Part shown: positions 10,631 to 42,539 of the stretch, one piece after another | Layout of the letters: each line of letters begins with the position of its first letter | Numbering within the stretch: position 1 is the stretch's first letter | Source: Escherichia coli | Lineage (GTDB): Bacteria > Pseudomonadota > Gammaproteobacteria > Enterobacterales > Enterobacteriaceae | NCBI RefSeq assembly: GCF_003018235.1 | Contig: NZ_CP027439.1 | Direction: 5' to 3' (one strand) | Length of the DNA stretch: 64,000 nt | Notes under the pieces: generated by a model | The model's input: the letters and a program-made list of their open reading frames with translations, nothing else | The model's database searches: none | What the model was told of the DNA's origin: nothing | Translations under genes and position numbers: made by a program

Positions 10631-10924
10631 TTACGCGATCGTCTGCACGACGCTCATGCAGGAGAGATCGATAATGTCTTTGATTTTCTCTCCGAGGGCC
10701 AGATGATCAGGGGCGCGCATATAGCGCTCCCAGTCCTCCCGGGAATCGAACTCGGCAATCAGCACCACTGCCTGGGTTTCTGACCAGTCGAGTGTCTTTT
10801 CAACGCTGAAGGCTTTGATCCTCGGGACGATGGAGGGCAATTGGCGAAGGATGTCCACTACAGCAGACAGCTCGGCCTCAGTCTTACCTGGATATGTTTT
10901 GCCTATGAAAATATGTTTCAACAT
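10631..10924 (-). CDS. Dabb (stress-responsive alpha/beta-barrel) domain protein
   Basis: 97 aa with the typical size and pattern (MLKHIFIGK...AEFDSREDWERYMRAPDH). It is tightly linked to the flanking dehydrogenases. Confidence 0.7.
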   Translation of the reverse strand: MLKHIFIGKTYPGKTEAELSAVVDILRQLPSIVPRIKAFSVEKTLDWSETQAVVLIAEFDSREDWERYMRAPDHLALGEKIKDIIDLSCMSVVQTIA

Positions 10925-10935
10925 TCGGGGCTCCT

Positions 10936-11997
10936 TCAGGCATTTTTCAGCGTAGACATGTCAATAGAGAAACGATATTTGACGTCACCCTTTTCCAGGC
11001 GGACATAAGCTTCATTAATCTCCTGGATGCCGATGACTTCCACATCGGATGTGATGTTGTGCTGACCGCAGAAATCGAGCATTTCCTGCGTTTCAGCAAT
11101 CCCGCCAATAAGTGACCCGGACAGGCTACGGCCGCCAAAAATAAGGCTGTAGGCTGAGACATCAATTTTGTCAGCAGAAGCGCCAACCAGCGTCAGATTA
11201 CCTTCCGGATGCAGCATATTGAGGTAAACATTCAGATCATGTGGAGCGGATACGGTATCGAGAATAAAATCAAACGTACCGGCGTGAGCCTGCATCTCTT
11301 CCGGGTTTCGTGACACCACTACTTCATGAGCACCAACACGGAGTGCATCTTCTTTCTTGGATGGAGATGTGGTGAAGAGAACCACATGTGCGCCCAGGGC
11401 GCGGGCAAATTTTACGCCCATATGTCCTAGTCCGCCCAGACCAACGATACCCACTTTCTGACCGGCCTTTACACCCCAGCGACGGATAGGGGAATAGGCA
11501 GTGATGCCCGCACATACCAGCGGAGCAACACCTGCCAGATCGAGATTTTCCGGTACCTGAAGAACAAAATGCTCATCCACCACAATGCTTTCGGCATAAC
11601 CACCGTAGGTCACCGGAGCAGTACCGTAATTATCCGGTGAGTTATACGTCAGCACCTTGGTAGGGGAATACTGTTCACGATTCGCTTTACAGTGAGGGCA
11701 GGTTGGATCGGCATCGACCAAGCAGCCCACAGCGACAATATCGCCAGCCTTGTGTTTTGTCACCGCCGTGCCCACCGAGATAACCCGGCCTACAATTTCA
11801 TGACCCGGAACAATCGGGTAAATGGTTGGCATGGCGCTGCCGAACTCATCACGCACATGGTGAATGTCAGAGTGGCAAACCCCGCAGAACAGAATATCAA
11901 TCCGGACATCGTGCTCATTCGGATCACGACGCGGGATCGATAACGGTGCAAGTGGGGATGTTGCGGACGTGGCCGCATAAGCTTTGGTTACGTACAT
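10936..11997 (-). CDS. Zn-dependent alcohol dehydrogenase (cinnamyl-alcohol dehydrogenase group)
   Basis: GVCHSDIH, GHEIVG, CPHCKANREQY and GLGGLGH motifs. It is a paralogue of 3881-4936. Confidence 0.9.
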   Translation of the reverse strand: MYVTKAYAATSATSPLAPLSIPRRDPNEHDVRIDILFCGVCHSDIHHVRDEFGSAMPTIYPIVPGHEIVGRVISVGTAVTKHKAGDIVAVGCLVDADPTCPHCKANREQYSPTKVLTYNSPDNYGTAPVTYGGYAESIVVDEHFVLQVPENLDLAGVAPLVCAGITAYSPIRRWGVKAGQKVGIVGLGGLGHMGVKFARALGAHVVLFTTSPSKKEDALRVGAHEVVVSRNPEEMQAHAGTFDFILDTVSAPHDLNVYLNMLHPEGNLTLVGASADKIDVSAYSLIFGGRSLSGSLIGGIAETQEMLDFCGQHNITSDVEVIGIQEINEAYVRLEKGDVKYRFSIDMSTLKNA

Positions 11998-12145
11998 TCT
12001 TTGCTCCCGTTGATCCCGGCCAGAAGTGCCGGGAAGTGCGACTACTATAGGGAGCTAATTATCAATATAATAGATAGTAAATCATTGAAGCTGTTGCAAG
12101 TATTAATTGATAATAATGTGAGTTATCCTGATAGGGAAAGGCATC

Positions 12146-13105
12146 ATGCTGACAAAAGACATTCGCGCGATAGATATACTGGCGAAAGCTGTGGAACTGG
12201 GCAGCCTGCGCCAGGCCGCTCTCGCAAAAGGGGTGACCTCACAGGCCGCCAGCCAGACACTCGCTCAACTTGAAGACTCACTGGGGGTGCGCCTTCTGCA
12301 CCGCACAACTCGCAGCCTCTCTCTGACAGAGGAGGGCAGGCAACTGCTGGAAGCCACACAACCGGCACTGGCGGTACTGGACCGTGCCCTTACGCGTGCA
12401 CGGCAGGCAAAGGACGAGGTTGCCGGTCCGTTGCGTATTGTTGGTCCCCGATCGGCCTTCACACCGGTTTTATGGCCAGTCATTGACGAATACTGCCGGC
12501 GCTACCCGGACGTTCAGCCAGAAGTGCAGCTTGATGACAACGTGGGGGACTGGGTTCTTGATCGAGTGGACGTGGGGTTTCGGTTTGGTTCTCCGCCTGC
12601 AGAGGGGCTTATCGCACGCCCGCTGTTCCGTGCGCAACTGATTATCTGTGCATCACCGGCATACCTCCGCACGCATGGTGTACCCCGTTCGCTGGAGGAA
12701 CTAGCGTACCACCGCTGCAGCGTCTTTCGCCATCCGGGAACGGATGCAATATTTCCCTGGTACGTAAATATAGGGGGAGAAATCCAGACACGAGAGTTTC
12801 CTCCAACCGTGGCAACAAACAGCACAGACATAGAAGTTGAGGCCACGCTGACCGGACAGGTCATCGCACAGCTCTCATCATTGTCCTCAGCTGCGCTGAT
12901 CCGCGCAGGCCGTCTTGTGCCCTTACTAACAGAGCATGTGGCCAGCCACCTTCATCTGTACGCTTACTACGGGAGCCGCAAAGCGCAGCCGCTGCGGGTC
13001 AGAAAATTTATCGAGCTCGCCGTCGAACGGTTAACGGACAACCGGGAGCTGACTCTGACTACAGATGAACTGCAGACGTATTCTGCTGAAAGGCTGAACC
13101 AGTAA
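12146..13105 (+). CDS. LysR-family transcriptional regulator
   Basis: 319 aa, divergent from the 10936-11997 ADH operon. It shares long identical blocks with 8542-9498 (LIICASPAYLR, VDVGFR, YYGSR.AQPLR.R.FI.LAVERL). Confidence 0.9.
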   Translation: MLTKDIRAIDILAKAVELGSLRQAALAKGVTSQAASQTLAQLEDSLGVRLLHRTTRSLSLTEEGRQLLEATQPALAVLDRALTRARQAKDEVAGPLRIVGPRSAFTPVLWPVIDEYCRRYPDVQPEVQLDDNVGDWVLDRVDVGFRFGSPPAEGLIARPLFRAQLIICASPAYLRTHGVPRSLEELAYHRCSVFRHPGTDAIFPWYVNIGGEIQTREFPPTVATNSTDIEVEATLTGQVIAQLSSLSSAALIRAGRLVPLLTEHVASHLHLYAYYGSRKAQPLRVRKFIELAVERLTDNRELTLTTDELQTYSAERLNQ

Positions 13106-13725
13106 GTGACATGTACGAAAACGCCCTTTGTGAAAACAAGACGGGATTCAGATTCATAACCCAGTCAGATATGTCTGCTCCTGACACTTAGCTGACTTTT
13201 AACGGGAGAACAGCCTGGCGGGCTTATATATACAGTTATCGCAATAATTTGCGTGATTTCCTGTGCTGGGGACAATAATCCGCTCAGCACAATAATCGTT
13301 CTTAATTAGTGCCCCTCATTCATCAATCCCTCTCATCTTCTCCGCAGATCCGAAAACCTCCAGAGTAGGATCTTGTCTCACCCTACCGGCGCTGCACACC
13401 ACGACAACACAAGATGTAGCGGCTCTGTCAACTGCCTTGGCTACCAGATGTTGTGTTTATCTCTTCGTTCTGTGAGGGGCGCTGCACGCCGGAAAACGGA
13501 GCTTTGCTCAGGGCGTAATCGTGCTACACTTCCGGAAAGTCGTGAATACGTGAAAAATCGGATCACCTGAAAACCGCCATCCGTTAATTTAATCCAGTGG
13601 TTATCAGGCTGCTAATTATCAGACAAAGAAAACATCATGGCAGGGAAAGTCCTGTGTGTGATAGTCAGGTGAGTTAGCGGTGGTGAGGTAATGATTGCGG
13701 TTTGTGATTATTTATTGGAAAAGGA

Positions 13726-29240: not shown

Positions 29241-29537
29241 TCAGTTATGTGGCCTCAGCGTCGTGTGCGGGCTGTGCCGTGCCTCCAACTTAGCCGGGTT
29301 GGCGTTGATGCAAGGGTACGCTTCGCCGCTGCGGTCACCCGGTCCCTCCTTCCCGTCTGCCGTGATTTTCCGGTCGTTCACCCGCTCAGATTTCGCGGTA
29401 TCACCCTCCAACTCCCGTCAGCCGAGTGCGTCAGGCTGCGGCTTCCCTTGCGCCCCTGCATCCCCGCCTTATCGCCCGGCTTTTATGGAGGCACGGCACC
29501 GCCCGGTGTCGCGGAATATGTGAACAACGGAGGAAAT

Positions 29538-29577
29538 CCCATGCAGTATGCGAAACTCCCATGCAGTATGCGAAACC
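29538..29577 (+). repeat. 20-bp tandem duplication spanning the klcA start codon
   Basis: CCCATGCAGTATGCGAAACT followed by CCCATGCAGTATGCGAAACC. Confidence 0.85.
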
Positions 29578-29986
29578 TGTCACTCTGAACGTTGAAGAGT
29601 GCGACCGTCTGTCTTTTCTGCCTTACCTGTTTGGCCTGGATTTTCTGTATGCCGAAGCGTCTGTATACGCGCTGGCGAAACAAATGATGCCGGAATATCA
29701 GGGAGGTTTCTGGCACTTCATCCGCCTGCCGGACGGTGGCGGTTACATGATGCCGGATGGCGACCGTTTCCACATGGTGAACGGTGCAAACTGGTTTGAC
29801 CGTACCGTGAGTGCTGATGCCGCAGGCATCATTCTGATTTCCCTTGTGATTAACCGCCAGTTGTGGCTGTACCACGACAGCGGGGATGCAGGACTGACCC
29901 AGCTTTACCGGATGCGCGATGCGCAGTTGTGGCGTCACATCGAATTTCACCCTGAATGCAACGCGATTTACGCGGCACTGGACTGA
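29561..29986 (+). CDS. klcA: KlcA/ArdB-family antirestriction protein
   Basis: 141 aa. [25 protein letters not shown]...[18 protein letters not shown] matches KlcA as I remember it. This is the typical first anti-restriction gene of F-like leading regions. Confidence 0.9.
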
Positions 29987-30032
29987 TTAACGGACGGGGC
30001 GGCAATGCCGCCCCTGTAAAGGAGACGAGAAC

Positions 30033-30455
30033 ATGTACTGTACTGTTAAAGAAATTATCCGCGAAGTGCTGGATACAGACGTGCCGGACAGTGAATGCGT
30101 TTTTGCCGTGGTGCTGACACGTGGGGATGTGCGTCACATAGCCCAGGACTGGAGTCTGACAGACGATGAGCTGGAAGCCGTCATGCAGCGGCTGGACGAT
30201 GCCTTTGAGCATGGTGCGGATGTCAGCATTGTTCACGACGTTGTTCGTGAACTGATGGAGGAAAAGCGCGCCAGCCGTCAGGTGACAGTCCCGGCGGTGA
30301 TGCTGGAAAAAGTGATGGCGCTGGCAGGCAGTGAAATGAAGCGCCTGTATGCCGTCGGGAGTGAGAACGGGGGCGACGGTGACGCATTCGTCAGGGAGGA
30401 ACGCGAAGCAATAAACGTTGTGTTACAGGCGCTGGACGGGGAGCACATGTCATGA
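30033..30455 (+). CDS. Conserved leading-region protein of unknown function (DUF1380-like, from memory)
   Basis: 140-aa acidic ORF with a GGAG SD. It is coupled to the next ORF. Confidence 0.65.
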   Translation: MYCTVKEIIREVLDTDVPDSECVFAVVLTRGDVRHIAQDWSLTDDELEAVMQRLDDAFEHGADVSIVHDVVRELMEEKRASRQVTVPAVMLEKVMALAGSEMKRLYAVGSENGGDGDAFVREEREAINVVLQALDGEHMS

Positions 30456-30643
30456 ATATCAGCACGGAAACCCGCGAAATTCTGCGCAATTACAAAGCCG
30501 TGATTAATGCGTGGCGTCGTGAAATGGGACAGAAACCGCTCACCACCGCACAGATTGTTGATGAAATCTGCGATTTTGTGGCGAATCAGCAGGCGGTTTT
30601 CCTCGGTGGTCACTACATCCTTCAGGGCAGCAGAAACAGGTGA
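30452..30643 (+). CDS. Hypothetical small protein (63 aa)
   Basis: ATGA overlap with the upstream ORF. Confidence 0.5.
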   Translation: MNISTETREILRNYKAVINAWRREMGQKPLTTAQIVDEICDFVANQQAVFLGGHYILQGSRNR

Positions 30644-30872
30644 TACAGGGGCAGGCGGTGGAGGCCGCCTGTCAGCCCGCGCGAAAACCCCTGGCAGGCT
30701 GACGCCTGCCGGAAGGGAAGCGGGCCACGCTGACGCGTCGCCCGTTACCCTTCCTGTTTGTGATGTGCCCGGAATGTTTTTTTCTGATGTTATTTTTCTG
30801 TGGTTACCGTGCTTGTTATTGTTCTTCTTCTTTTTCCTCTTCCTCTTCTTTCCGTTCCTCTCCTGTTTATGG

Positions 30873-31398
30873 CTTTTCCGGGCGTCCCCCTGACGGGGCG
30901 GGCTGTCGTGAACGGAGCCAGCGAAGCTGTCTCCGCCCTGGCGGGCTTCCATCCCTGACGCGAAACCCTGGCTTGCAGCGACCGTTCCGGTCGCGCCGCC
31001 TCTGTCGCGCCGTGGCCTGCGCTCCTGGCATCCCGGCAAAAGGCCGCCGGGATGTAAGGGGCAACGCCGTTTCGCGCACGCGCTCTCCGTCGTTGCGGCG
31101 GGCCCCTGCTCATTGCCTGCCGGGTGCCACACACCCGTATGAGTCCCTGTCGCCGGGGGCTGAGACAGCCACAACCTGCCGCACTGACTGTCCAGGGTAA
31201 ATGAACAGCCCACAAAATTTTTTACCCAAAAACCGGTAAAAAATTTTGCGTTCTGCCCAGGACAGGTGCGTCAGGCCGTGGCAGTGATGCCCCTTGCGGC
31301 GAAGGTTCTCAAACGGGTGAAGTTCATACCACAGGGAATACAGCAGCAGGTTCCCGCGAAACGTCAAAACCGCGGCTCCCGAAACTCAACGGGTGATG
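30873..31398 (+). promoter_or_regulatory. Frpo/ssi-like leading-region repeat, copy A
   Basis: About 526-bp GC-rich repeat shared with 34166-34707 and 39682-40124. It contains the 14-bp-stem hairpin CAAAATTTTTTACC...GGTAAAAAATTTTG (31213-31248). Confidence 0.65.
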
Positions 31399-31625
31399 TT
31401 CTTTAAAAATCAGGATTTATTTCAGCCTCCGGCAATACGCATTTATTTGTTCTGTCAGTCATCCGGCTGACAGGTAATGAGAACGCAGGAACAGAAGGAG
31501 GAAAACACCGGAAAGCGTCAGATGCAGATATGAAAAAAGCAGGTCAGGGACCTGCTTAATCCATGCCGCAGAGACTGCACGAACAGTTTTTGCGGCTCCA
31601 GTCAATCGTCATAAGAGGCTAAATT

Positions 31626-31856
31626 ATGACAATAAGTATTGTTTCACCTTCCGCAGCGGCTGTAAAGCCCCGCCGTCATCCCCGTTTCAGACGCGAAGAC
31701 ATCCCCGCGCCGGAAATTGACCCCGTGCTGAAAGCCTTCGGGCGACACATAGCCCGGAGTTTTCACCGGGGGCGTGGTGCACACATCCCCGCCATGAAAA
31801 ACACGGCCTTCGGGCAGGTGCTCCGCACACTCGAACTGAAACGCGCTTTTAACTGA
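31626..31856 (+). CDS. Hypothetical basic protein (76 aa)
   Basis: First ORF downstream of repeat copy A. There is no recognisable motif. Confidence 0.4.
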   Translation: MTISIVSPSAAAVKPRRHPRFRREDIPAPEIDPVLKAFGRHIARSFHRGRGAHIPAMKNTAFGQVLRTLELKRAFN

Positions 31857-31907
31857 TGAGGTGAGCCGCCCCGCGAGGGGCGGCAACAGACGGAAGGAGA
31901 ACATTTT

Positions 31908-33269
31908 ATGACATTAGCAGCAATCACCATGACCGCCCCGGAAGCCGCCAGCCCTGTGCAGATGTACCGCGCGACCTACTCACCGGATGACAACAAACTG
32001 CGCCTGTATGCCGCGTCACGTCTTGACCCGGAGACGTATAAGAAAGTCCATGATGCCGGTTTCCGCTGGGCACCAAAACAGGCGCTGTTTGTCGCGCCAG
32101 CTTGGACACCGGGCCGGGAAGATGTGCTCCTCTCACTTGCCGGAGAGATTGAGGATGAAGACAGCACACTCGCTGAACGTCAGGAAGCACGGGCGGAGCG
32201 GTTTACTGGATACAGCGGAAAGCGGGCCAGTGAATCCGCACAGGCACTTGATGAAGTGGAAAGACTGGCCGCGATGATCCCGCCCGGTCAGCCCATTCTT
32301 GTGGGGCATCACAGCGAACGCCGCGCCCGTCGTGATGCGCAGCGTATTGAAAACGGCATGAAACGTGCTGTGATGCTCTTTGAACGTGCAGAATACTGGG
32401 AAGAGCGGGCGCGCTCGGCACTGCTTCACGCGAAGTATAAAGAACGTCCGGACGTTCGCTGGCGTCGTATCAAAAAAATCGAAGCTGATTTGCGCAAGTC
32501 TGAAAAGACCATCGCGCAGTCGCAGAAATATCTGACGATGTGGCGGGCTGAATCGCTGGATCTGAATATGGCAAAACTCATCAGCAGTCATGACCATATC
32601 AGCGCCTGTTTCCCGCTGGATACGTATCCGCGCCCGGCAGAAAAAAGCCAGTATGAAGGAAGTCGCTCGTTATGGTCGGCCCTGGATGATGACATCATCA
32701 CCACGGAGCAGGCCCGTGAAATTGCGATCCGCTGTCATGAACGGCAGATTCAGCGTCAGCAACGCTGGGTTAACCACTATCAGAACCGCCTGATCTATGA
32801 GCGTGCCATGCTGGACGAAAGCGGCGGCGTGGTTACCCGGACACAGGATTTTGAGCCGGGCGGACAGGTTTTCAGCCGGGGTGAGTGGCTGACCATCATC
32901 CGCGTGAACAAAAGCAACGGGGCGGTGAGTTCAGTCACAACGCCAAATTACAGTTTTCTCGGGTACAGCGGCACGATGAAAGTGACGCCCGATCGCATCA
33001 CGGACTACAAAGCACCATCGGCAGAAGAGGCTGCCGTCGCCAGCCAGGCCGCGAAGCGTCCGCCGGTAGTCAACTATCCGGGGGAAGGTTTCCGGGAAAT
33101 GACAAAGGCACAGTGGGCCGCCCTGCCCCGGGACTGTAAGGCCGTGCGCAGTGTGGCAGAAGCAGAAGACCACGGGGCATACCGCTACCGCCGCACAATG
33201 GACAATAATTTCCGTCTGGTGAATGTGTATATCACCGACATGAAAATTACGGAAATCCCACAGAAATAA
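31908..33269 (+). CDS. Conserved leading-region protein of unknown function (DUF3560-like, from memory)
   Basis: 453-aa ORF with a GGAG SD. The N-terminal block YSPDDNKLRLYAASRLDPETYKKVHDAGFRWAPKQ is typical of this family. Confidence 0.7.
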   Translation: MTLAAITMTAPEAASPVQMYRATYSPDDNKLRLYAASRLDPETYKKVHDAGFRWAPKQALFVAPAWTPGREDVLLSLAGEIEDEDSTLAERQEARAERFTGYSGKRASESAQALDEVERLAAMIPPGQPILVGHHSERRARRDAQRIENGMKRAVMLFERAEYWEERARSALLHAKYKERPDVRWRRIKKIEADLRKSEKTIAQSQKYLTMWRAESLDLNMAKLISSHDHISACFPLDTYPRPAEKSQYEGSRSLWSALDDDIITTEQAREIAIRCHERQIQRQQRWVNHYQNRLIYERAMLDESGGVVTRTQDFEPGGQVFSRGEWLTIIRVNKSNGAVSSVTTPNYSFLGYSGTMKVTPDRITDYKAPSAEEAAVASQAAKRPPVVNYPGEGFREMTKAQWAALPRDCKAVRSVAEAEDHGAYRYRRTMDNNFRLVNVYITDMKITEIPQK

Positions 33270-33315
33270 GGTATATCCCCCCGGGAAATCCCCGGGGGAT
33301 GACGGAGATAATGAC

Positions 33316-33879
33316 ATGCACAGTCAGTTAAAAGAACGTATCCGGCTGATGCGCGCAAGGCTGGATAACGCCGCGCCGGTTGCTGAAATCCGGGCTGAAT
33401 CTCAGCTTTTTGTGACTCCTGCCCCGGTCTGTGATCGCCTGGTGACGCTGGCGGAGATCAGCAACCGTGATCACATTCTGGAACCCTCTGCCGGCACCGG
33501 GGCCATACTGCGGGCGATTCGGGATACCGCGCCGGGGGCCATGTGTGATGCGGTGGAAATCAACAGCGGGCTGGTCCGGTATCTGCGGGAAAATTTTAAC
33601 GGTGTCAGGGTTCAGTGTGGCGACTTCATGGAATGGCAGCCGGTGCAGTATTACAGCCGGGTTATCATGAATCCGCCGTTCAGCCACGGGCAGGATATCC
33701 GGCATATCCTGCGGGCCTTTTCCCTGTTGCGTCCGGGTGGCGTGCTGGTTGCCGTCTGTCTGAACGGGCCGCGCCAGCAGGAGAAGCTGTTACCGTTTTC
33801 TGACGTCCGCGAGGAGCTGCCACGCGGCACGTTTGCTTATACCGATGTTCCGACGATGATTATTCGTCTGCGTGCCTGA
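33316..33879 (+). CDS. Orphan SAM-dependent DNA (N6-adenine type) methyltransferase
   Basis: SAM motif ILEPSAGTGAIL and catalytic motif IMNPPF. There is no adjacent restriction gene. Confidence 0.85.
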   Translation: MHSQLKERIRLMRARLDNAAPVAEIRAESQLFVTPAPVCDRLVTLAEISNRDHILEPSAGTGAILRAIRDTAPGAMCDAVEINSGLVRYLRENFNGVRVQCGDFMEWQPVQYYSRVIMNPPFSHGQDIRHILRAFSLLRPGGVLVAVCLNGPRQQEKLLPFSDVREELPRGTFAYTDVPTMIIRLRA

Positions 33880-34060
33880 TGACTCCGGGCAGGCGGGAGG
33901 ACAAATGCCCGTCTGCCCGCGCCGGGAAAAGACCGCGCGCCGGTGGCGCTGAAAGGGGCCGCGCTCACGCGCCGCCCCTTACATTACGCGGACATTCTGC
34001 TGTGGGCTTCTGTCTTTTCAGACCTGTCATTTGTCTGTTACTGATGATGTTGTTGTTCCT

Positions 34061-34108
34061 GCTACTGCTACTGCTACTGCTACTGCTACTGCTACTGCTA
34101 CTGCTACT
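34061..34108 (+). repeat. Hexanucleotide microsatellite (GCTACT)x8
   Basis: Eight perfect tandem copies, preceded by TGATGATGTTGTTGTT and followed by T/C-rich sequence. Confidence 0.9.
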
Positions 34109-34165
34109 GTTCTTCTTTTTTCTGCTGTTCTGATTACTGCCTGTTTTGTTGTTCTCCTGCTTATG

Positions 34166-34707
34166 CCTTTTCCGGGCGTCCCCCTGGCGGGGCGGGCTGT
34201 CGTGAACGGAGCCAGCGAAGCTGTCTCCGCCCTGGCGGGCTTCCATCCCTGACGCGAAACCCCGGGCTTGCAGCGACCGTTCCGGTCGCGCCGCCTCTGT
34301 CGCGCCGTGGCCTGCGCTCCCGGCATCCCGGCAAAAGGCCGCCGGGATGTAAGGGGCAACGCCGTTTCGCAAACCGCGCTTCACGTCGTTGCGGCGGGTC
34401 CCTGTCCGTTGTTGTGTCCGGTGCCATTCACCTGTTTAAGCCCCTGTCGCCGGGGGCTGATACAGCCACAACCGTCTCCGCCAGTCCAGGGGTGAAATGT
34501 ACATCCCGCAAAACTTTTTGCCCAAAAGCAGGCAAAAACTTTTGCGGTCTGCCCCCGGACAGTCGTTTCCGGCCGTGGCAGTGATGCCCCTTGCGGCGAA
34601 GGTTCTCAAAAAGGTGATGGTGAATACCGGAGGGAACAAAAGGCAGGTCCCCGCAAAACGTCAAAACCGCGGCTCCCGAAACTCAAAAGATGATGGGGGC
34701 TGAAAAC
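34166..34707 (+). promoter_or_regulatory. Frpo/ssi-like leading-region repeat, copy B (upstream of ssb)
   Basis: Aligns with copies A and C. The hairpin arms GCAAAACTTTTTGCC / GGCAAAAACTTTTGC carry changes relative to copy A in both arms. Confidence 0.65.
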
Positions 34708-34728
34708 ATCAACAGAAGGAGGCACATC

Positions 34729-35558
<830 letters not shown>

Positions 35559-35621
35559 GAGAGGTGCCGGACGGGAACGCGTCCGGCAGACATACAACCA
35601 TCCCGGTCAAAGGAGAAATAT

Positions 35622-37580
35622 ATGTCAGTTACAGAGTCTAAGACAAAAACGGAGCGTAAATCCAGCCGTAAACCTGCAAAAACGCAGGAAACAGTCCTGT
35701 CTGCCCTGCTGGCGCAGACGGAGGAAGTGAGCGTGCCGCTGGCCTCACTGATTAAATCACCGCTGAATGTGCGCACGGTGCCGTATTCTGCGGAGTCCGT
35801 CAGCGAACTGGCGGACTCCATTAAAGGCGTCGGCCTGTTACAGAATCTGGTTGTTCATGCCCTGCCAGGTGACCGTTACGGTGTCGCCGCAGGTGGTCGC
35901 CGACTGGCTGCACTCAACATGCTGGCAGAGCGTGGCATCATTCCGGCTGACTGGCCTGTCCGTGTGAAGGTCATTCCGCAGGAGCTGGCGACGGCGGCAT
36001 CAATGACTGAAAACGGTCATCGTCGGGATATGCACCCTGCTGAACAGATTGCCGGATTCCGCGCAATGGCGCAGGAAGGCAAAACACCTGCACAAATCGG
36101 TGATTTGCTGGGCTATTCACCCCGCCATGTCCAGCGAATGCTGAAACTGGCAGATCTTGCGCCTGTCATCCTCGATGCGCTGGCAGAAGACCGCATCACC
36201 ACCGAACACTGTCAGGCGCTGGCACTGGAGAACGACACCGCGCGTCAGGTGCAGGTGTTTGAAGCCGCCTGCCAGTCAGGATGGGGTGGAAAACCGGAAG
36301 TGCAGACCATTCGTCGTCTGGTGACCGAAAGTGAAGTGGCGGTGGCGGGGAACAGTAAATTCCGCTTCGTGGGGGCTGATGCCTTCTCGCCAGATGAACT
36401 GCGCACCGATTTGTTCAGCGACGACGAGGGTGGCTATGTGGACTGTGTTGCGCTCGATGTCGCCCTGCTGGAAAAACTCCAGGCTGTCGCAGAGTTCCTT
36501 CGGGAAGCCGAAGGCTGGGAATGGTGCGCCGGACGTATGGAGCCTGTTGGTGAGTGCCGTGAGGATGCCGGAACATACCGCTGTCTGCCGGAGCCGGAAG
36601 CGGTGCTGACGGAGGCGGAAGAAGAACGCCTGAACGAACTGATGGCACGTTACGACGCGCCGGAAAACCAGAGTGAGGAATCCGACCTGCTGGAAGCCGA
36701 AATGAAGCTGATGCGCTGCATGGCGAAGGTCAGGGCGTGGACGCCGGAGATGCGTGCCGGAAGTGGCGTGGTGGTGTCCTGGCGTTATGGCAACGTGTGT
36801 GTCCAGCGTGGTGTGCAGTTGCGCAGTGAGGATGATGTGGCTGATAACGATTACCGCACGGAACAGGTGCAGGAGAAAGCCTCAGTGGAGGAAATCAGTC
36901 TGCCGCTGCTGACGAAAATGTCCTCAGAGCGCACGCTGGCAGTCCAGGCGGCACTGATGCAGCAATCAGACAAATCCCTGGCACTTCTGGCATGGACACT
37001 CTGTCTGAATGTATTTGGCAGTGGAGCGTACAGCAATCCCGCCAGAATCCGCCTGGAATGTGAGCATTATTCGCTGACCAGCGATGCGCCGTCAGGGAAG
37101 GAAGGTGCCGCATTCATGGCGATGATGGCAGAAAAAGCCCGTCTTGCCGCCCTGCTGCCGGATGGATGGGCACGGGATATGACGACGTTCCTGTCACTCA
37201 GTCAGGAGGTGCTGTTATCACTGCTCAGTTTCTGCACCGCGTGCAGTATCCACGGTGTCCAGACCCGTGAGTATGGTCACACGTCACGCAGTCCGCTGGA
37301 TTCGCTGGAAAGCGCCATCGGCTTTCACATGCGCGACTGGTGGCAGCCGACAAAAGCAAACTTCTTCGGACACCTGAAAAAGCCGCAGATTATCGCAGCC
37401 CTGAATGAGGCAGGACTGTCCGGTGCTGCACGGGACGCGGAGAAGATGAAGAAAGGCGATGCGGCTGAACATGCAGAGTTCCACATGAAAGACAACCGCT
37501 GGGTGCCTGGCTGGATGTGTGCACCACGCCCACAGACGGATGCCACTGAACGCACCGATAACCTGGCTGATGCCGCCTGA
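35622..37580 (+). CDS. ParB/Srx-domain protein of the leading region (652 aa)
   Basis: N-terminal ParB-type box LLQNLVVHALPGDRYGVAAGGRRLAAL. It holds the conserved position upstream of psiB in F-like plasmids. Confidence 0.85.
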   Translation: MSVTESKTKTERKSSRKPAKTQETVLSALLAQTEEVSVPLASLIKSPLNVRTVPYSAESVSELADSIKGVGLLQNLVVHALPGDRYGVAAGGRRLAALNMLAERGIIPADWPVRVKVIPQELATAASMTENGHRRDMHPAEQIAGFRAMAQEGKTPAQIGDLLGYSPRHVQRMLKLADLAPVILDALAEDRITTEHCQALALENDTARQVQVFEAACQSGWGGKPEVQTIRRLVTESEVAVAGNSKFRFVGADAFSPDELRTDLFSDDEGGYVDCVALDVALLEKLQAVAEFLREAEGWEWCAGRMEPVGECREDAGTYRCLPEPEAVLTEAEEERLNELMARYDAPENQSEESDLLEAEMKLMRCMAKVRAWTPEMRAGSGVVVSWRYGNVCVQRGVQLRSEDDVADNDYRTEQVQEKASVEEISLPLLTKMSSERTLAVQAALMQQSDKSLALLAWTLCLNVFGSGAYSNPARIRLECEHYSLTSDAPSGKEGAAFMAMMAEKARLAALLPDGWARDMTTFLSLSQEVLLSLLSFCTACSIHGVQTREYGHTSRSPLDSLESAIGFHMRDWWQPTKANFFGHLKKPQIIAALNEAGLSGAARDAEKMKKGDAAEHAEFHMKDNRWVPGWMCAPRPQTDATERTDNLADAA

Positions 37581-37634
37581 TGAACAACCACACCGCCCCG
37601 CCGGAGACGGGGCGGCAGCAAGGGAGATACCGTG

Positions 37635-38069
37635 ATGAAAACTGAACTGACCCTGAATGTATTACAGACCATGAACGCACAGGAATATGAAGATATCCGG
37701 GCTGCCGGAAGTGATGAACGCCGTGAGCTGACTCACGCCGTGATGCGGGAGCTGGATGCGCCGGATAACTGGACGATGAACGGCGAGTACGGCAGCGAGT
37801 TTGGCGGCTTTTTCCCCGTCCAGGTCCGTTTCACGCCTGCCCACGAACGTTTTCACCTGGCGTTATGTTCACCGGGCGATGTCTCTCAGGTCTGGGTGCT
37901 GGTTCTGGTGAATGCCGGTGGTGAGCCGTTTGCGGTGGTTCAGGTACAGCGGCGGTTTGCACCGGAAGCCGTCAGCCATTCACTGGCACTGGCGGCGTCA
38001 CTGGATACGCAGGGGTACAGCGTTAACGACATCATCCATATCCTGATGGCGGAAGGAGGTCAGGTATGA
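37635..38069 (+). CDS. psiB: Plasmid SOS-inhibition protein PsiB
   Basis: 144 aa. [40 protein letters not shown] matches F PsiB. Confidence 0.95.
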
Positions 38070-38785
38070 GCGTACGTTCACAGGCACTGGTTCCCCTCAG
38101 CACAGAGCAACAGGCCGCATGGCGGGCGGTGGCGGAGACAGAAAAACGCCGCCATCAGGGTAACACGCTGGCGGAATATCCGTATGCGGGGGCGTTTTTC
38201 CGCTGTCTGAACGGAAGCCGCAGGATATCGCTGTCTGACCTGCGATTTTTCATGCCGTCCCTGACCGCAGAAGAACTGCACGGCAACCGTCTTCAGTGGC
38301 TGTATGCAGTCGATGTGCTGATTGAAACACAGGGCGAGGTCTGCCTCCTTCCCCTTCCCGGTGATGCAGCAGAGCGGTTGTTTCCGTCGGTGCGGTTTCG
38401 TGTCAGGGAGCGCAGTCGCCATAAATCCGCGCTGGTCATGCAGAAGTACAGCCGCCAGCAGGCACGGGAGGCAGAGCAGAAAGCCCGTGCGTACCAGGCG
38501 CTGGTCGCTCAGGCTGAAATCGAACTGGCATTCCATTCGCCGGAAACAGTCGGAAGCTGGCATGCACGCTGGAGTGACCGGGTGGCAGAGCATGACCTGG
38601 AAACCCTGTTCTGGCAGTGGGGCGAGCGTTTTCCGTCACTGGCCGGAATGGAACGCTGGCAGTGGCAGGATATGCCGTTCTGGCAGGTTATTGCGGAAGC
38701 CAGTCTTGCAGCAAGAGAGGCCGGTCACGCTGTCCGTGAGATGGAGCGGTGGATGGTGCCGAACAAACTCCGGGAGGCTGCGTGA
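38066..38785 (+). CDS. psiA: PsiA protein
   Basis: 239 aa, coupled to psiB by an ATGA overlap. It is collinear with F PsiA as I remember it. Confidence 0.9.
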
Positions 38786-38954
38786 TGCGGCAACAATCAC
38801 ACAGATTACCCGTAAACAGCCTGAATGAGCGGGTTATTTTCAGGAAAAGTGAGTGTGGTCAGCGTGCAGGGATATGGGCTATGATGTGCCCGGCGCTTGA
38901 GGCTTTCTGCCTCATGACGTGAAGGTGGTTTGTTGCCGTGTTGTGTGGCAGAAA

Positions 38955-39016
38955 GAAGATAGCCCCGTAGTAAGTTAATTTTCATTAACCACCACGAGGC
39001 ATCCCTATGTCTAGTC
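38955..39016 (-). ncRNA. sok: Sok/FlmB-type antisense RNA (approximate ends)
   Basis: A minus-strand promoter reads TTGCGC (39051-39046), 17-nt spacer, TATCCT (39028-39023). The transcript would cover the mok start region and the GTTAAT-GAAA-ATTAAC hairpin. Confidence 0.5.
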
Positions 39017-39219
39017 CACATCAGGATAGCCTCTTACCGCGCTTTGCGCAAGGAGAAGAAGGCCATGAAACTACCACGAAGTTCCCTTGTCTGGTGTGTG
39101 TTGATCGTGTGTCTCACACTGTTGATATTCACTTATCTGACACGAAAATCGCTGTGCGAGATTCGTTACAGAGACGGACACAGGGAGGTGGCGGCTTTCA
39201 TGGCTTACGAATCCGGTAA
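39007..39219 (+). CDS. mok: Mok-type leader reading frame overlapping hok
   Basis: 70-codon ORF overlapping the hok frame, as in hok/sok and flm loci. Confidence 0.7.
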
Positions 39220-39223
39220 GTAG
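39065..39223 (+). CDS. hok: Hok/FlmA-family type I toxin (52 aa)
   Basis: [52 protein letters not shown]. The ORF is below the ORF-track cutoff and was found by reading the sequence. Confidence 0.9.
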
Positions 39224-39681
39224 CAACCTGGAGGCGGGCGCAGGCCCGCCTTTTCAGGACTGATGCTGGTCTGACTACTGAAGCGCCTTTATAAAGGGGC
39301 TGCTGGTTCGCTGGTAGCCCCTTTCTCCTTGCTGATGTTGTACGGGCATGAACAACCTGACTTCAGGAAGATCGTTTCCCTTCAGGAACGGGGATGAACG
39401 CGCGCCTGCGGCGCCCGTTCTTTTCCCCCGCCTTCTCTGGTTATGGCCTGTCAGAAATCACATCACCTTCCCTGTGATTATTCTCTTTTTCTTCCTGCTC
39501 TGATTCTGACTACTGCAGTGTTGTCCTGTCTGCTAGGCGCACCTTCGGCTCCCGGCTGCCTGGCGGCATCCGGTCGTCAGGCCCGACTCCGACAGGCAGC
39601 TGCTGGCGCACCTGCCAGTCTCCGCCGAACCCGCTGGCGCGGTTTCGGGCTGTCGCTACGGTCCGATGCGTGAAAACCACA

Positions 39682-40124
39682 GGCTTGCAGCGACCGTTCC
39701 GGTCGCGCCGCCTCTGTCGCGCCGTAGCCTGCGCTCCCGGCATCCCGGCAAAAGGCCGCCGGGATGTAAGGGGCAACGCCGTTTCGCAAACCGCGCTTCA
39801 CGTCGTTGCGGCGGGTCCCTGCCCGTTGTTGTGTCCGGTGCCATTCACCTGTTTAAGCCCCTGTCGCCGGGGGCTGATACAGCCACAACCTGCCGCACTG
39901 ACTGTCCAGGGTAAATGAACAGCCCACAAAATTTTTTACCCAAAACCCGGTAAAAAATTTTGCGTTCTGCCCAGGACAGGTGCGTCAGGCCGTGGCAGTG
40001 ATGCCCCTTGCGGCGAAGGTTCTCAAACAGGTGATGGTTAATACCGGAGGGAACAAAAGGCAGGTCCCCGCAAAACGTCAAAACCGCGGCTCCCGAAACT
40101 CAACAGATGATGGGGGCTGAAAAC
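39682..40124 (+). promoter_or_regulatory. Frpo/ssi-like leading-region repeat, copy C (upstream of orf95)
   Basis: It lacks the first ~100 bp of copies A and B. Internally it is a mosaic of B-like, A-like and B-like segments. Confidence 0.65.
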
Positions 40125-40137
40125 CAGAGAAAGCAGG

Positions 40138-40425
40138 ATGAGTACCCGAAATATCCACGTTAACACCGCGTCGTACACGCTTCTTGTTGCCGGGAAGAAA
40201 AAAAACACCGGGGAAGAGTGGGACGTCCTGGAATTCAGCAGCCTGACTGAGCTGAAAAAATATCGCAAAAGCCACCCGGAAAAGATGGCCTTCAGCTATA
40301 GCTACGCGCTCAGCCAGGGTGTGGATACGCAGTTCCGCCATATCAACATTGCGGAAGCTGATCACTTCAAACAGTTCCTGCGTCAGATTAAGCGTGCCGG
40401 CCTCGATATCCGGGCGATCTGCTGA
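40138..40425 (+). CDS. Leading-region protein of unknown function (F orf95 equivalent)
   Basis: 95 aa. Position and length match orf95 of the F leading region (from memory). Confidence 0.7.
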   Translation: MSTRNIHVNTASYTLLVAGKKKNTGEEWDVLEFSSLTELKKYRKSHPEKMAFSYSYALSQGVDTQFRHINIAEADHFKQFLRQIKRAGLDIRAIC

Positions 40426-40542
40426 CCGGATGTGATGAATATCCCTCCTGATTGTTGCAATGTTGTTAATGGAGAACGGGGGGATGATATTAAGCGGAAA
40501 AATTTTTTATTAAATTTATTCTTTCATAAAGGAGTAGCTGTT

Positions 40543-41364
40543 ATGCGATTAGCTTCCCGTTTTGGTCGGTATAATTCCATCCGCCGTGAACGTCCTTTAA
40601 CGGATGATGAATTAATGCAGTTCGTGCCTTCGGTATTTTCCGGTGATAAACATGAGTCCCGGAGTGAACGTTATACGTATATTCCAACAATCAATATCAT
40701 CAATAAGTTACGTGATGAAGGTTTCCAGCCATTCTTTGCCTGTCAGAGTCGGGTTCGTGATTTGGGGCGTCGGGAATACAGTAAATATATGTTACGTCTT
40801 CGTAGGGAAGGGCATATTAACGGGCAGGAAGTTCCTGAAATTATCCTGCTTAATTCACATGATGGTTCATCCAGTTATCAGATGATCCCGGGAATTTTTC
40901 GTTTTGTCTGCACAAATGGCCTGGTGTGCGGAAATAATTTTGGCGAAATCCGCGTTCCACATAAAGGTGATATTGTCGGGCAGGTTATCGAGGGAGCGTA
41001 TGAAGTGCTCGGTGTCTTTGATAAGGTCACTGATAATATGGAGGCAATGAAAGAAATTCATCTTAACAGTGACGAGCAACATTTATTTGGCAGAGCTGCC
41101 CTGATGGTCAGGTATGAAGATGAAAATAAAACGCCGGTGACGCCTGAACAGATAATTACTCCCCGTCGTCGGGAGGATAAACAGAACGATCTCTGGACAA
41201 CCTGGCAGCGGGTTCAGGAGAATATGATAAAAGGTGGATTATCGGGGCGAAGTGCCTCCGGGAAAAATACCAGGACAAGAGCCATTACAGGTATTGATGG
41301 TGATATAAGAATCAACAAAGCATTATGGATGATTGCCGAACAGTTCAGGGAGTGGAAGTCATGA
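40543..41364 (+). CDS. DUF932-family protein (F orf273 equivalent)
   Basis: 273 aa from ATG 40543 (AAAGGAG SD). It contains the conserved block SHDGSSSYQMIPGIFRFVCTNGLV. Confidence 0.85.
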   Translation: MRLASRFGRYNSIRRERPLTDDELMQFVPSVFSGDKHESRSERYTYIPTINIINKLRDEGFQPFFACQSRVRDLGRREYSKYMLRLRREGHINGQEVPEIILLNSHDGSSSYQMIPGIFRFVCTNGLVCGNNFGEIRVPHKGDIVGQVIEGAYEVLGVFDKVTDNMEAMKEIHLNSDEQHLFGRAALMVRYEDENKTPVTPEQIITPRRREDKQNDLWTTWQRVQENMIKGGLSGRSASGKNTRTRAITGIDGDIRINKALWMIAEQFREWKS

Positions 41365-42170: not shown

Positions 42171-42539
42171 TTTTCCACCTCTGGTGACTTTATCCGTAAA
42201 TAATTTAACCCACTCCACAAAAAGGCTCAACAGGTTGGTGGTTCTCACCACCAAAAGCACCACACCCCACGCAAAAACAAGTTTTTGCTGATTTTTCTTT
42301 ATAAATAGAGAGTTATGAAAAATTAGTTTCTCTTACTCTCTTTATGATATTTAAAAAAGCGGTGGTACTGACTATTTTTATAAAAAACATTATTTTATAT
42401 TAGGGGCGCTGCTAGCGGCGCGGTGTGTTTTTTTATAGGATAACGCCAGGGGCGCTGCTAGCGGTGCGTCCCTGTTTGCATTATGAATTTTAGTGTTTCG
42501 AAATTAACTTTATTTTATGTTCAAAAAAGGTAATCTCTA
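42171..42539 (-). other. oriT region of an F-type plasmid, with the nic site on the minus strand
   Basis: The minus strand reads TTTGCGTGGGGTGTGGTGCTTTTGGTGGTGAGAAC (42245-42279), the F nic-region sequence as I recall it, with the nick expected near 42261/42262. It is followed by AT-rich bends and two GGGGCGCTGCTAGCGG(C/T)GCG TraM-site-like repeats at 42403-42422 and 42449-42468. Confidence 0.85.

Follow-up and report, generated by a model that had tools for sequence, protein, structure and literature searches.

Three Frpo/ssi-type repeats as probable single-stranded DNA promoters in the leading region of an IncF-type plasmid

Three direct repeats and their downstream gene blocks

The window, i.e., the whole 64 kb stretch of DNA that was analyzed, is the leading region of an IncF-type plasmid. 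The F nic-region 13-mer GGTGTGGTGCTTT was found in oriT as an exact match on the minus strand (42254-42266), and traM, traJ, and traY are located just past it. This placement identifies the minus strand as the one that is transferred. It enters the recipient with its 5′ end first from nic at approximately 42260, so that the repeats described below arrive in the order C, B, A.

Exactly three direct repeats, named A, B, and C, are present in the 64 kb window, and a profile search revealed no fourth copy. They sit 2.1–11 kb into the leading region, and all genes downstream of them are plus-sense, which is the strand geometry stated in the original prediction. The coordinates given there proved essentially correct: the homology of C begins at 39674 instead of 39682, A (30873-31398) runs on to about 31420, B (34166-34707) to about 34720, and C to about 40135. 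The genes assigned to each copy were also found in the expected places.

Repeat A (30873-31420, minus strand) is a Frpo-type class-1 element with an upstream extension of approximately 170 nt, and it reaches the recipient after the other two copies. It is followed by a plus-strand block (31626-33879) consisting of orf76 (31626-31856), a gene for a DUF3560 protein (31908-33269) and one for a class I SAM methyltransferase (33316-33879). The gap between A and orf76 measures about 230 nt and contains an antisense-RNA match. Repeat B (34166-34720, minus strand) is a Frpo-type element directly upstream of ssb, whose ATG at 34729 lies 9 nt past the end of the repeat. The plus-strand block downstream of B (34729-38785) comprises ssb, a DUF905 gene, a ParB-like gene, psiB, and psiA, with Pfam matches to SSB, DUF905, ParB_N/HTH_ParB, PsiB, and PsiA. 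Repeat C (39674-40135, minus strand), also of the Frpo type, lacks the upstream extension of A and B. It is the first copy to enter, approximately 2.1 kb from nic, and is located directly upstream of orf95 in the ygeA position. C ends at the ribosome-binding site of orf95, which starts at 40138 and forms a plus-strand block with a gene for a DUF932 protein (40138-41364); orf95 itself is ygeA-like.

Each copy is located directly upstream of a co-oriented gene block, the operon-proximal position of ssp1 promoters. Annotation pipelines call short ORFs within the repeats, and these are probably spurious.

Sequence identity and folding of the transferred strand

The repeats were compared with the reference sequences in Supplementary files 4 and 11 of Samuel et al. 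(2024; PMC11541004). Over all 351 nt, repeat B matches F ssiD/Frpo (D90178) with 96.3% identity, and repeat C is 98.1% identical to the experimentally used F Frpo2 fragment. Repeat A shows 91.4% identity to F Frpo2 and 78.5% to F ssiD. The ssi1-3 elements of ColIb-P9 are 77–80% identical to the repeats, over approximately 100 nt of the hairpin core only. Direct comparison had been set beforehand as the refutation test for an assignment to the Frpo/ssi type, and best identities of 91.4–98.1% (A and C to Frpo2, B to ssiD) bear this assignment out. At least 5,000 plasmid records match the element, mostly in three places per record.

The minus strand of each copy, folded as single-stranded DNA as proposed with the original prediction, forms a single imperfect hairpin of approximately 360 nt (−96 to −106 kcal/mol, z −8.4 to −9.7). 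The hairpins extend from 31040 to 31400 in A (−99.3 kcal/mol, z −8.4), from 34335 to 34700 in B (−96.5 kcal/mol, z −8.7) and from 39752 to 40117 in C (−106.2 kcal/mol, z −9.7), all on the transferred strand. An extensive imperfect stem-loop, for which about 330 nt is given for ssp1 promoters, is present in all three copies, and the strand that forms it is both the transferred strand and the template for the downstream genes, as in ssp1. No other 300-nt window between 18 and 42.6 kb folds as stably in single-stranded form as those in A, B, and C, which reach −85 to −95 kcal/mol, with the median at −41. The hairpin is also formed by the plus strand, though less stably (−92.7 kcal/mol for A compared to −99.3 on the minus strand), and folding by itself is no proof of which strand acts.

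Evidence from 42 Enterobacterales relatives shows that the hairpin is kept across genera by compensatory changes. In this set 98% of the cells are paired, compared to 37–47% with slid partners, and the covariation score is 0.146 as against at most 0.051 for slid partners. Compensatory changes on both sides were found at 15 hairpin pairs, a number which none of 500 shuffles reached. Furthermore, in 42 of 42 sequences the gene-template (transferred) strand forms the more stable fold of the two strands, with a mean gap of 13.9 kcal/mol, and it carries more G·T pairs. Functionless duplicated intergenic DNA or ordinary double-strand elements (terminators, cruciforms, or mobile-element remnants) would also be repeated and recombining, and might likewise attract short ORF calls. 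However, the compensatory changes, the better folding of the transferred strand throughout the family, the conserved placement and orientation relative to nic and the leading genes, and the function experimentally shown for near-identical F copies speak against this explanation. No transposase or terminal-repeat signature was seen at the repeats either, and the probability of such an origin is practically negligible.

Sequence identity, strand geometry, folding, and covariation in the family are all in line with one reading: A, B, and C are very probably class-1 single-stranded DNA promoters of the Frpo/ssi type, also called ssp1. The phenomenon as a whole has already been published (Masai and Arai, 1997; Bates et al., 1999; PMC9849209; PMC11541004; PMC12672017). 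On the entering minus strand each element folds into its hairpin of about 360 nt, which host sigma-70 RNA polymerase, as described in the literature for the near-identical F elements, would bind like duplex promoter DNA. Transcription would then proceed from the hairpin, following the transferred strand, into the plus-sense genes. In this way A would drive orf76, the DUF3560 gene, and the methyltransferase gene, B would drive ssb, the DUF905 gene, the ParB-like gene, psiB, and psiA, and C would drive orf95 and the DUF932 gene. Since complementary-strand synthesis would iron out the hairpin and switch the promoter off, expression is expected to be early and transient. Any activity of A is extrapolated, as F has no counterpart of this copy and the gene-proximal arm of A shares only 77% identity with the others.

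The promoter reading is consistent with several observations on related elements. Transcription and priming in vitro from Frpo were shown by Masai and Arai (1997), as cited in PMC9849209, and early expression of the downstream proteins is lost in vivo when Frpo1 or Frpo2 is deleted from F (PMC9849209). It is only from the F and IncI homologues that RNA polymerase- and SSB-dependent transcription or priming on single-stranded DNA, together with early rifampicin-sensitive expression in recipients, is documented in the literature. Start sites of the class-1 ssi1-3 promoters of pESBL were mapped by 5′ RACE, and F transcripts under the control of Frpo1/Frpo2 are enriched in recipients (PMC12672017). 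The same transcripts could also prime complementary-strand synthesis, and the repeats might mainly be ssi signals that provide RNA primers in the recipient, in which case gene expression would be a by-product. F ssiD, to which B is about 96% identical, was originally obtained as a signal for priming, Frpo transcripts serve as primers for DNA synthesis in vitro (PMC7690428), and early conversion at and downstream of ssp1a and ssp1b is rifampicin-sensitive in vivo (bioRxiv 10.64898/2026.01.09.698686). Against this stand the loss of early downstream protein production in the Frpo1 or Frpo2 deletions (PMC9849209) and the position of every copy directly before a co-oriented block, with B and C ending at a ribosome-binding site, which makes it unlikely that priming is the main function. 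Both roles are compatible; priming is likely as an extra role and not likely as the sole one.

It is highly improbable that the hairpins are chiefly barriers, which delay complementary-strand synthesis and thereby keep the leading region single-stranded for longer. They are very stable (−96 to −106 kcal/mol), and a roadblock role has been shown for the unrelated ssp2 hairpin of F, but in that study the stall mapped to ssp2 and not to ssp1a/ssp1b, and early conversion began at the ssp1 sites (bioRxiv 10.64898/2026.01.09.698686). In addition, the window has an ssp2-like hairpin of its own at 29252-29512.

Apical modules and the mosaic copy C

The apical module of A, designated alpha type, extends from 31165 to 31285 on the minus strand. 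It contains an A/T-rich stem of 16 bp (31211-31226 / 31235-31250) with a loop at 31227-31234 and an unpaired bulge of 8 nt, TTCATTTA on the minus strand (31198-31205). The beta-type module of B (34462-34582, minus strand) is 66–68% identical to the alpha module. Its stem (34506-34522 / 34531-34547) has a G·G mismatch at the center, and its unpaired bulge reads TACATTTCA on the minus strand (34493-34501). An unpaired bulge of 8–10 nt with T-N-C-A-T-(T/C)-T is always kept on the non-template arm of the apical module.

Covariation of the apical stem had been proposed from arms that were quoted correctly (A 31213-31226 / 31235-31248; B 34506-34522 / 34531-34547), but its strength was overstated. 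The A/C form differs from the B form at three pairs, and a single one of these is a true compensatory change (A-T to G-C). The second is a one-sided change from G·T to G-C, and in the third both sides changed, with a mismatch as the result, which is G·G on the transferred and C·C on the plus strand.

Sigma-70 boxes (−35 and −10) that are reconstituted in the stem are a feature of ssp1 promoters. A scan of the transferred strand for −35/−10 consensus sequences gave no match in A and C, and only TGGGCA-17-TACATT in B, with 8 of 12 positions agreeing with the simple consensus. A consensus duplex sigma-70 promoter was not found in or beside any copy. As this refers to a consensus match only, it is weak evidence that the copies, like ssp1 elements, do not act as promoters in duplex form. 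The conserved outer stem seems to carry a variable apical module, in which the bulge is a candidate for a pre-melted −10-like element. Transcription would then start near 31255-31262 in A, 34553-34560 in B, and 39970-39977 in C.

Repeat C is a mosaic, as the original prediction had described. In the alignment, 24 of its first 25 informative sites are B-like, all of the next 34 (39891-40028, minus strand) are A-like, and about 25 of the last 30 are B-like again. The maximum chi-square of this B-A-B pattern is 67.4, which was reached in 0 of 2,000 permutations (permutation maximum 29.1). The breakpoints lie within blocks that are identical in all copies (39878-39891 and 39987-40029). The swapped alpha block is the hairpin tip with both arms together. 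The mosaic pattern supports the proposed recombination among the copies. They trade sequence via homologous recombination or gene conversion, and C is a B-type body that holds the tip of an A-type copy.

At least two tip forms exist, a fully paired alpha form and a beta form in which the G·G mismatch is fixed. In IncF plasmids each of them is found at the ssb as well as at the ygeA position, and the G·G state is also seen in IncI1. A tentative reading is that the tip (approximately 100–135 nt with the A/T-rich stem, the loop, and the unpaired −10-like bulge) is a swappable cassette on a conserved outer stem, with both arms moving as a unit between paralogous copies and between plasmids; the alpha and beta forms may be long-lived. 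No paper describing the tip as such a cassette was found in open-access text. If the tip forms differ in promoter strength, timing, or priming, their shuffling would reset which of the leading operons is expressed most strongly upon entry.

Frpo/ssi elements enable a conjugative plasmid to switch on its genes for SSB, SOS inhibitors, and anti-defence functions ahead of the double-stranded stage, and this early step influences the establishment of resistance plasmids in new hosts. For the window, the value lies mainly in correct annotation, with three intergenic repeats as probable single-stranded DNA promoters defining three early operons. Modestly new are the apparent exchange of the hairpin tip as a unit between copies, the two-copy layout of F as an apparent A/B crossover, and the transferred strand as the better folder throughout the family.

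Comparison with known systems

One of the nearest characterized systems is F Frpo1, also named ssiD and ssp1a (Masai and Arai, 1997; Couturier et al., 2023). It shares with B the beta apical module (97% identity), the same hairpin architecture and the same orientation relative to nic. In F the ssiD type is located upstream of ygeA, whereas here the beta tip is found at the ssb position and copy C, at the ygeA position, has an alpha tip. Furthermore, the repeat unit reaches approximately 185 nt farther upstream here than the published ssiD fragment.

F Frpo2, also named ssp1b (Couturier et al., 2023) and used as a portable promoter by Samuel et al. (2024), has the alpha apical module in common with A (98%). 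It is collinear with A on the left and with B on the right. Up to and including the tip it resembles A, its gene-proximal arm resembles B, and it therefore looks like the product of a crossover between A and B. In F there are two copies, and the 3.3-kb orf76-DUF3560-methyltransferase block found here between A and B is missing. The F layout looks like an A/B crossover of the commoner three-copy layout.

The elements ssi1, ssi2, and ssi3 of ColIb-P9/IncI1 (Bates et al., 1999; Nasim et al., 2004), described as R1-R3 in pO26-CRL125 (PMC3817090), are likewise three dispersed leading-region repeats, each before a gene block. Their apical architecture is the same, with a GTCCNGGG / CCCTGGAC clamp, an A/T-rich stem and a 3′-arm bulge with (T/C)AT(T/C)T, and ssi1 has a G·G mismatch as in B. 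The outer stems, however, are unrelated in sequence to those of A, B, and C. Recombination between such repeats has already been described.

Finally, the class-2 and class-3 promoters ssp2 and ssp3 (Wen et al., 2025; PMC12672017) are also long transferred-strand hairpins upstream of leading-region operons, but show no sequence similarity to A, B, and C. The methylase operon of F uses a class-3 promoter, whereas here a different methyltransferase block is preceded by the class-1 copy A.

Repeats and genes of the leading region

Three direct repeats are located within 30.8–40.2 kb of the window, as the original prediction had stated. The genes after each copy were confirmed by Pfam scans. Copy A (30873–31398, reaching approximately 31420) lies upstream of orf76, which has no family, and of genes for a DUF3560 protein and a small SAM-dependent methyltransferase. 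Copy B (34166–34707, reaching approximately 34720) precedes the genes for SSB (ATG at 34729), a DUF905 protein, a ParB-like protein, PsiB and PsiA, and copy C, with homology from 39674 to approximately 40135, is followed by orf95 (no family) and a DUF932 protein gene. Rightward beyond the block of copy C, a transglycosylase gene, traM, traJ with FinP, traY and traA were found, and the region is the leading region and the transfer-operon start of an IncF-type conjugative plasmid. No fourth copy was found in the 64-kb window by a profile search built from A, B, and C.

The F nic-region sequence GGTGTGGTGCTTT has a single exact match, on the minus strand at 42254–42266, and therefore the minus strand is the transferred strand. 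It enters the recipient with its 5′ end first, towards lower coordinates, and the entry distance along it is approximately 2.1 kb for C, 7.5 kb for B and 10.9 kb for A. This strand is also the template of all listed plus-sense genes, which is the strand geometry that had been proposed for single-stranded DNA promoters.

An Rfam search of the window gave no family matching the repeats A, B, and C; all matches, namely isrC, traJ 5′ UTR, FinP, sok, AS-pc01 and AS-traG, lie elsewhere. The AS-pc01 match (antisense to pHK01_035; 31534–31631, minus strand; 109.6 bits, gathering score 79) lies in the 230-nt gap between copy A and orf76 and overlaps the beginning of this gene, and a terminator-like hairpin at 31557–31537 is located in the same gap. 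Both may be modulators of the operon driven by copy A. Directly 5′ of each repeat lies a plus-strand pyrimidine-rich tract (30780–30870, 34035–34130 and 39470–39520), purine-rich on the transferred strand, and in front of B the tract consists of approximately 12 units arranged as a (CTGCTA)n array. A 207-nt CDS is annotated inside the hairpin of B (34497–34703, plus strand) and likewise at approximately 462–669 in three related sequences (L051, L052, and L053). In public records it is labeled as "hypothetical protein" or even "single-stranded DNA-binding protein", and it is probably an annotation artefact.

Hairpin structure and the apical module

Folded as minus-strand single-stranded DNA, each copy forms one long imperfect hairpin of approximately 360 nt, with −99.3 kcal/mol (z −8.4) for A, −96.5 kcal/mol (z −8.7) for B and −106.2 kcal/mol (z −9.7) for C. 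When minus-strand folding was profiled between 18 and 42.6 kb by a 300-nt sliding scan, the three copies gave the three deepest minima (−85 to −95 kcal/mol vs. a median of −41). Relatives were gathered via a conserved motif outside the tip, scanning one genome per species, and 42 distinct sequences from Klebsiella, Raoultella, Citrobacter, Salmonella arizonae, Pantoea, Buttiauxella, Cedecea, Mixta and others were aligned; the family structure was analyzed with nhmmer, MAFFT, and pair counting on the consensus structure. Across these 42 sequences, standard pairs occur in 98.0% of the cells, compared to 37–47% when the partners are slid by 1–3 columns. Two-sided changes were found at 15 pairs, a number which none of 500 shuffles reached (slid controls 2–8), and the covariation score is 0.146 compared to at most 0.051 for slid partners. 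The gene-template strand is more stable than its complement in all 42 sequences, by 13.9 kcal/mol on average, a count that overstates independence as the sequences are related. It is richer in G·T pairs, which are C·A mismatches on the other strand. Such a uniform folding advantage would be expected if selection acts on the transferred single strand. Near-identical Klebsiella-type copies were also present on short contigs of assemblies labeled Catenulispora, Streptomyces, Geobacteraceae, and Dysgonomonas (L016, L022, L033, L046, and L014/L037), most likely because enterobacterial plasmid DNA contaminated, or was mis-binned into, these assemblies.

Covariation of the arms had been claimed for the apical stem, and the arms quoted for it are correct. 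On the transferred strand they read CGCAAAATTTTTTACC ... GGTAAAAAATTTTGTG in A and C and CCGCAAAAGTTTTTGCC ... GGCAAAAAGTTTTGCGG in B, differing at three paired positions. Only one of these is compensatory (A-T to G-C); the second is changed on one side (G·T to G-C), and the third is changed on both sides with loss of the pair (T-A to G·G). The G·G state also occurs in F Frpo1, ColIb ssi1, a Klebsiella plasmid and two Salmonella candidates, and a Citrobacter plasmid combines it with closing pairs like those of A and C. It is thus a recurrent state rather than noise, but does not itself argue for pairing. The structural conclusion stands because of the family-wide pair counts and not because of the three apical positions.

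All family members share a clamp, 5′-GTCC(N)GGG paired with CCC(N)GGAC-3′, which encloses a variable apical module. This module is a 16-bp A/T-rich stem in the F/IncI form, longer in the Klebsiella/Serratia form, and only a CGCGGTTTACCGCG mini-hairpin in the short form. The tips were compared by separate folding, since MAFFT fails to align the apical region across cassette types; located by regular-expression anchors, the tips compared leave out five sequences in the main survey and L049 in the comparison that included the Citrobacter plasmid. Except in the longer Klebsiella/Serratia form, the 3′ arm, which would be the non-template strand, carries an unpaired bulge of 8–10 nt with the motif T-N-C-A-T-(T/C)-T. 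Copies A and C have TTCATTTA there and B has TACATTTCA, whereas the short form carries TGCCATTTA and ColIb shows TACATCTCT or TATATCTT.

Scanning the transferred strand for plain −35/−10 consensus sequences gave no match in A or C, and only TGGGCA-17-TACATT in B. Two further readings were not endorsed: TTG(T/C)GG followed after 15–17 nt by TGGAC(A/T), the −10 of which is poor, and TTGACG as −35. The latter is nearly invariant near the base of the gene-proximal arm and lacks a conserved −10 at 16–18 nt. As both are unsatisfactory, the unpaired bulge was retained as the most likely −10 mimic; it would act as a −10-like element that is already melted, and the A/T-rich stem would be spacer or UP-like DNA. 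A consensus duplex promoter was found neither within nor adjoining A, B, and C, which is consistent with published observations that these genes are silent in donors.

Mosaic structure of copy C

Site counts and a breakpoint test confirm the proposal that copy C is a mosaic. At informative sites, where A differs from B and C equals one of them, C follows B at 24 of the 25 sites up to 39878, A at all 34 sites from 39891 to 40028, and B again at approximately 25 of 30 sites from 40029 onwards. The two-breakpoint maximum chi-square is 67.4, while the highest value among 2,000 permutations was 29.1. Two types of the 99-nt tip can be distinguished: the alpha type of A, C, and F Frpo2 (98–100% alike) and the beta type of B and F Frpo1 (97–100% alike), which are only 66–68% alike to each other. 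In the gene-proximal arm it is A that stands apart (77%) from B, C, and both F copies (98–100%). The A-like block of C is centered roughly on the loop, with both breakpoints in stretches that are identical across all copies, which indicates that the two arms of the tip were transferred jointly. If a crossover fell between the arms, an alpha arm would be joined to a beta arm and the hairpin impaired; survival is therefore likely only for whole-tip exchanges. The tips of C and A differ in one loop base, and C may have received its alpha tip either by conversion within the plasmid or by recombination with another plasmid. Recombination between such repeats was described for IncI plasmids (PMC3817090) and noted as a risk for F (PMC9849209).

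Comparison with published Frpo/ssi elements

For comparison, F ssiD (D90178, the original Frpo), ColIb-P9 ssi1-3 and the F Frpo2 portable-promoter fragment were used as references, all as given by Samuel et al. (2024; PMC11541004). Similarity was present for all three copies by BLAST: B matches F ssiD at 96.3% identity along its full 351 nt, C matches the F Frpo2 fragment at 98.1%, and A shows 91.4% identity to F Frpo2 and 78.5% to F ssiD. The ColIb ssi sequences share 77–80% identity with the window repeats over approximately 100 nt of the hairpin core. By sequence, A, B, and C are thus members of the Frpo/ssi family, beyond mere likeness to Frpo. Functionless repeats or a mobile element were considered as alternatives and rejected. 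In A (30873–31040), B (34166–34335) and both F copies the repeat unit extends 170–185 nt beyond the published 351-nt ssiD; on the transferred strand this upstream extension folds with −54 kcal/mol (z −3.2). The upstream module of C (39520–39673) is a different one, similar to the end segments of certain Salmonella and insect-metagenome candidates.

Further single-strand elements were detected in the window. A different long inverted repeat (29252–29512, minus strand), located 5′ of an antirestriction (ArdB/KlcA-like) ORF ending at 29986, is 85% identical over 263 nt to candidate Frpo′ 4 (Samuel et al., 2024), a type later named class 2 or ssp2. Counting A, B, and C, the leading region thus has four or more hairpin promoters, which belong to two classes. 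Between the DUF932 and transglycosylase genes, close to oriT, the segment 41478–41666 (minus strand) is 96% identical to F ssiE (D90180), a published single-strand initiation signal.

The F plasmid (NC_002483) carries two copies, Frpo1 5′ of a ygeA homologue and Frpo2 5′ of ssb. To the left of Frpo2, F 10700–12610 is collinear with window 29486–31398 through copy A, and to the right, F 12071–13300 is collinear with window 34153–35385, including copy B and ssb. Frpo2 itself resembles A up to and including the tip, and B in the gene-proximal arm. The F layout looks like the product of a crossover between A and B that removed the 3.3-kb orf76-DUF3560-methyltransferase block, although an insertion, in the opposite direction, would leave the same arrangement. 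Among the plasmid matches listed, three places per record are commonest. Roughly, taking the best place per record among the best 5,000 plasmid matches, beta and alpha tips each account for about half at the ssb position, and, again roughly by best place per record, an alpha tip at the ygeA position, the combination of the window, is a minority arrangement. The best full-length match to the window's alpha-tip copy at the ygeA position has 97.9% identity. In a close relative (L001, NZ_CP091041.1, 14729–14918), the copy at this position consists of the two repeat ends only, the hairpin core (B positions 152–503) being deleted.

Three homologous repeats were reportedly described in ColIb-P9 in 1999. 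As cited in PMC9849209, Frpo was characterized in 1997 as a single-strand promoter and primer source in vitro. Early expression in vivo is lost when Frpo1 or Frpo2 is deleted (PMC9849209). A catalogue lists more than 13,000 homologues across approximately 6,000 conjugative elements (PMC11541004), and one or more are present in 74% of the psiB-carrying PLSDB plasmids (PMC12826799). The class-1/2/3 nomenclature dates from 2025, when start sites were also mapped (PMC12672017), followed in 2026 by a report of in vivo priming at ssp1a and ssp1b, i.e., F Frpo1 and Frpo2 (bioRxiv 10.64898/2026.01.09.698686). No description was found in the open-access literature of whole-tip exchange between copies, of an A/B crossover as the origin of F Frpo2, or of the transferred strand being uniformly the better-folding one. 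These three points are minor additions to a known system, which the Frpo/ssi interpretation had correctly recognized: A, B, and C as Frpo/ssi elements are already known biology.
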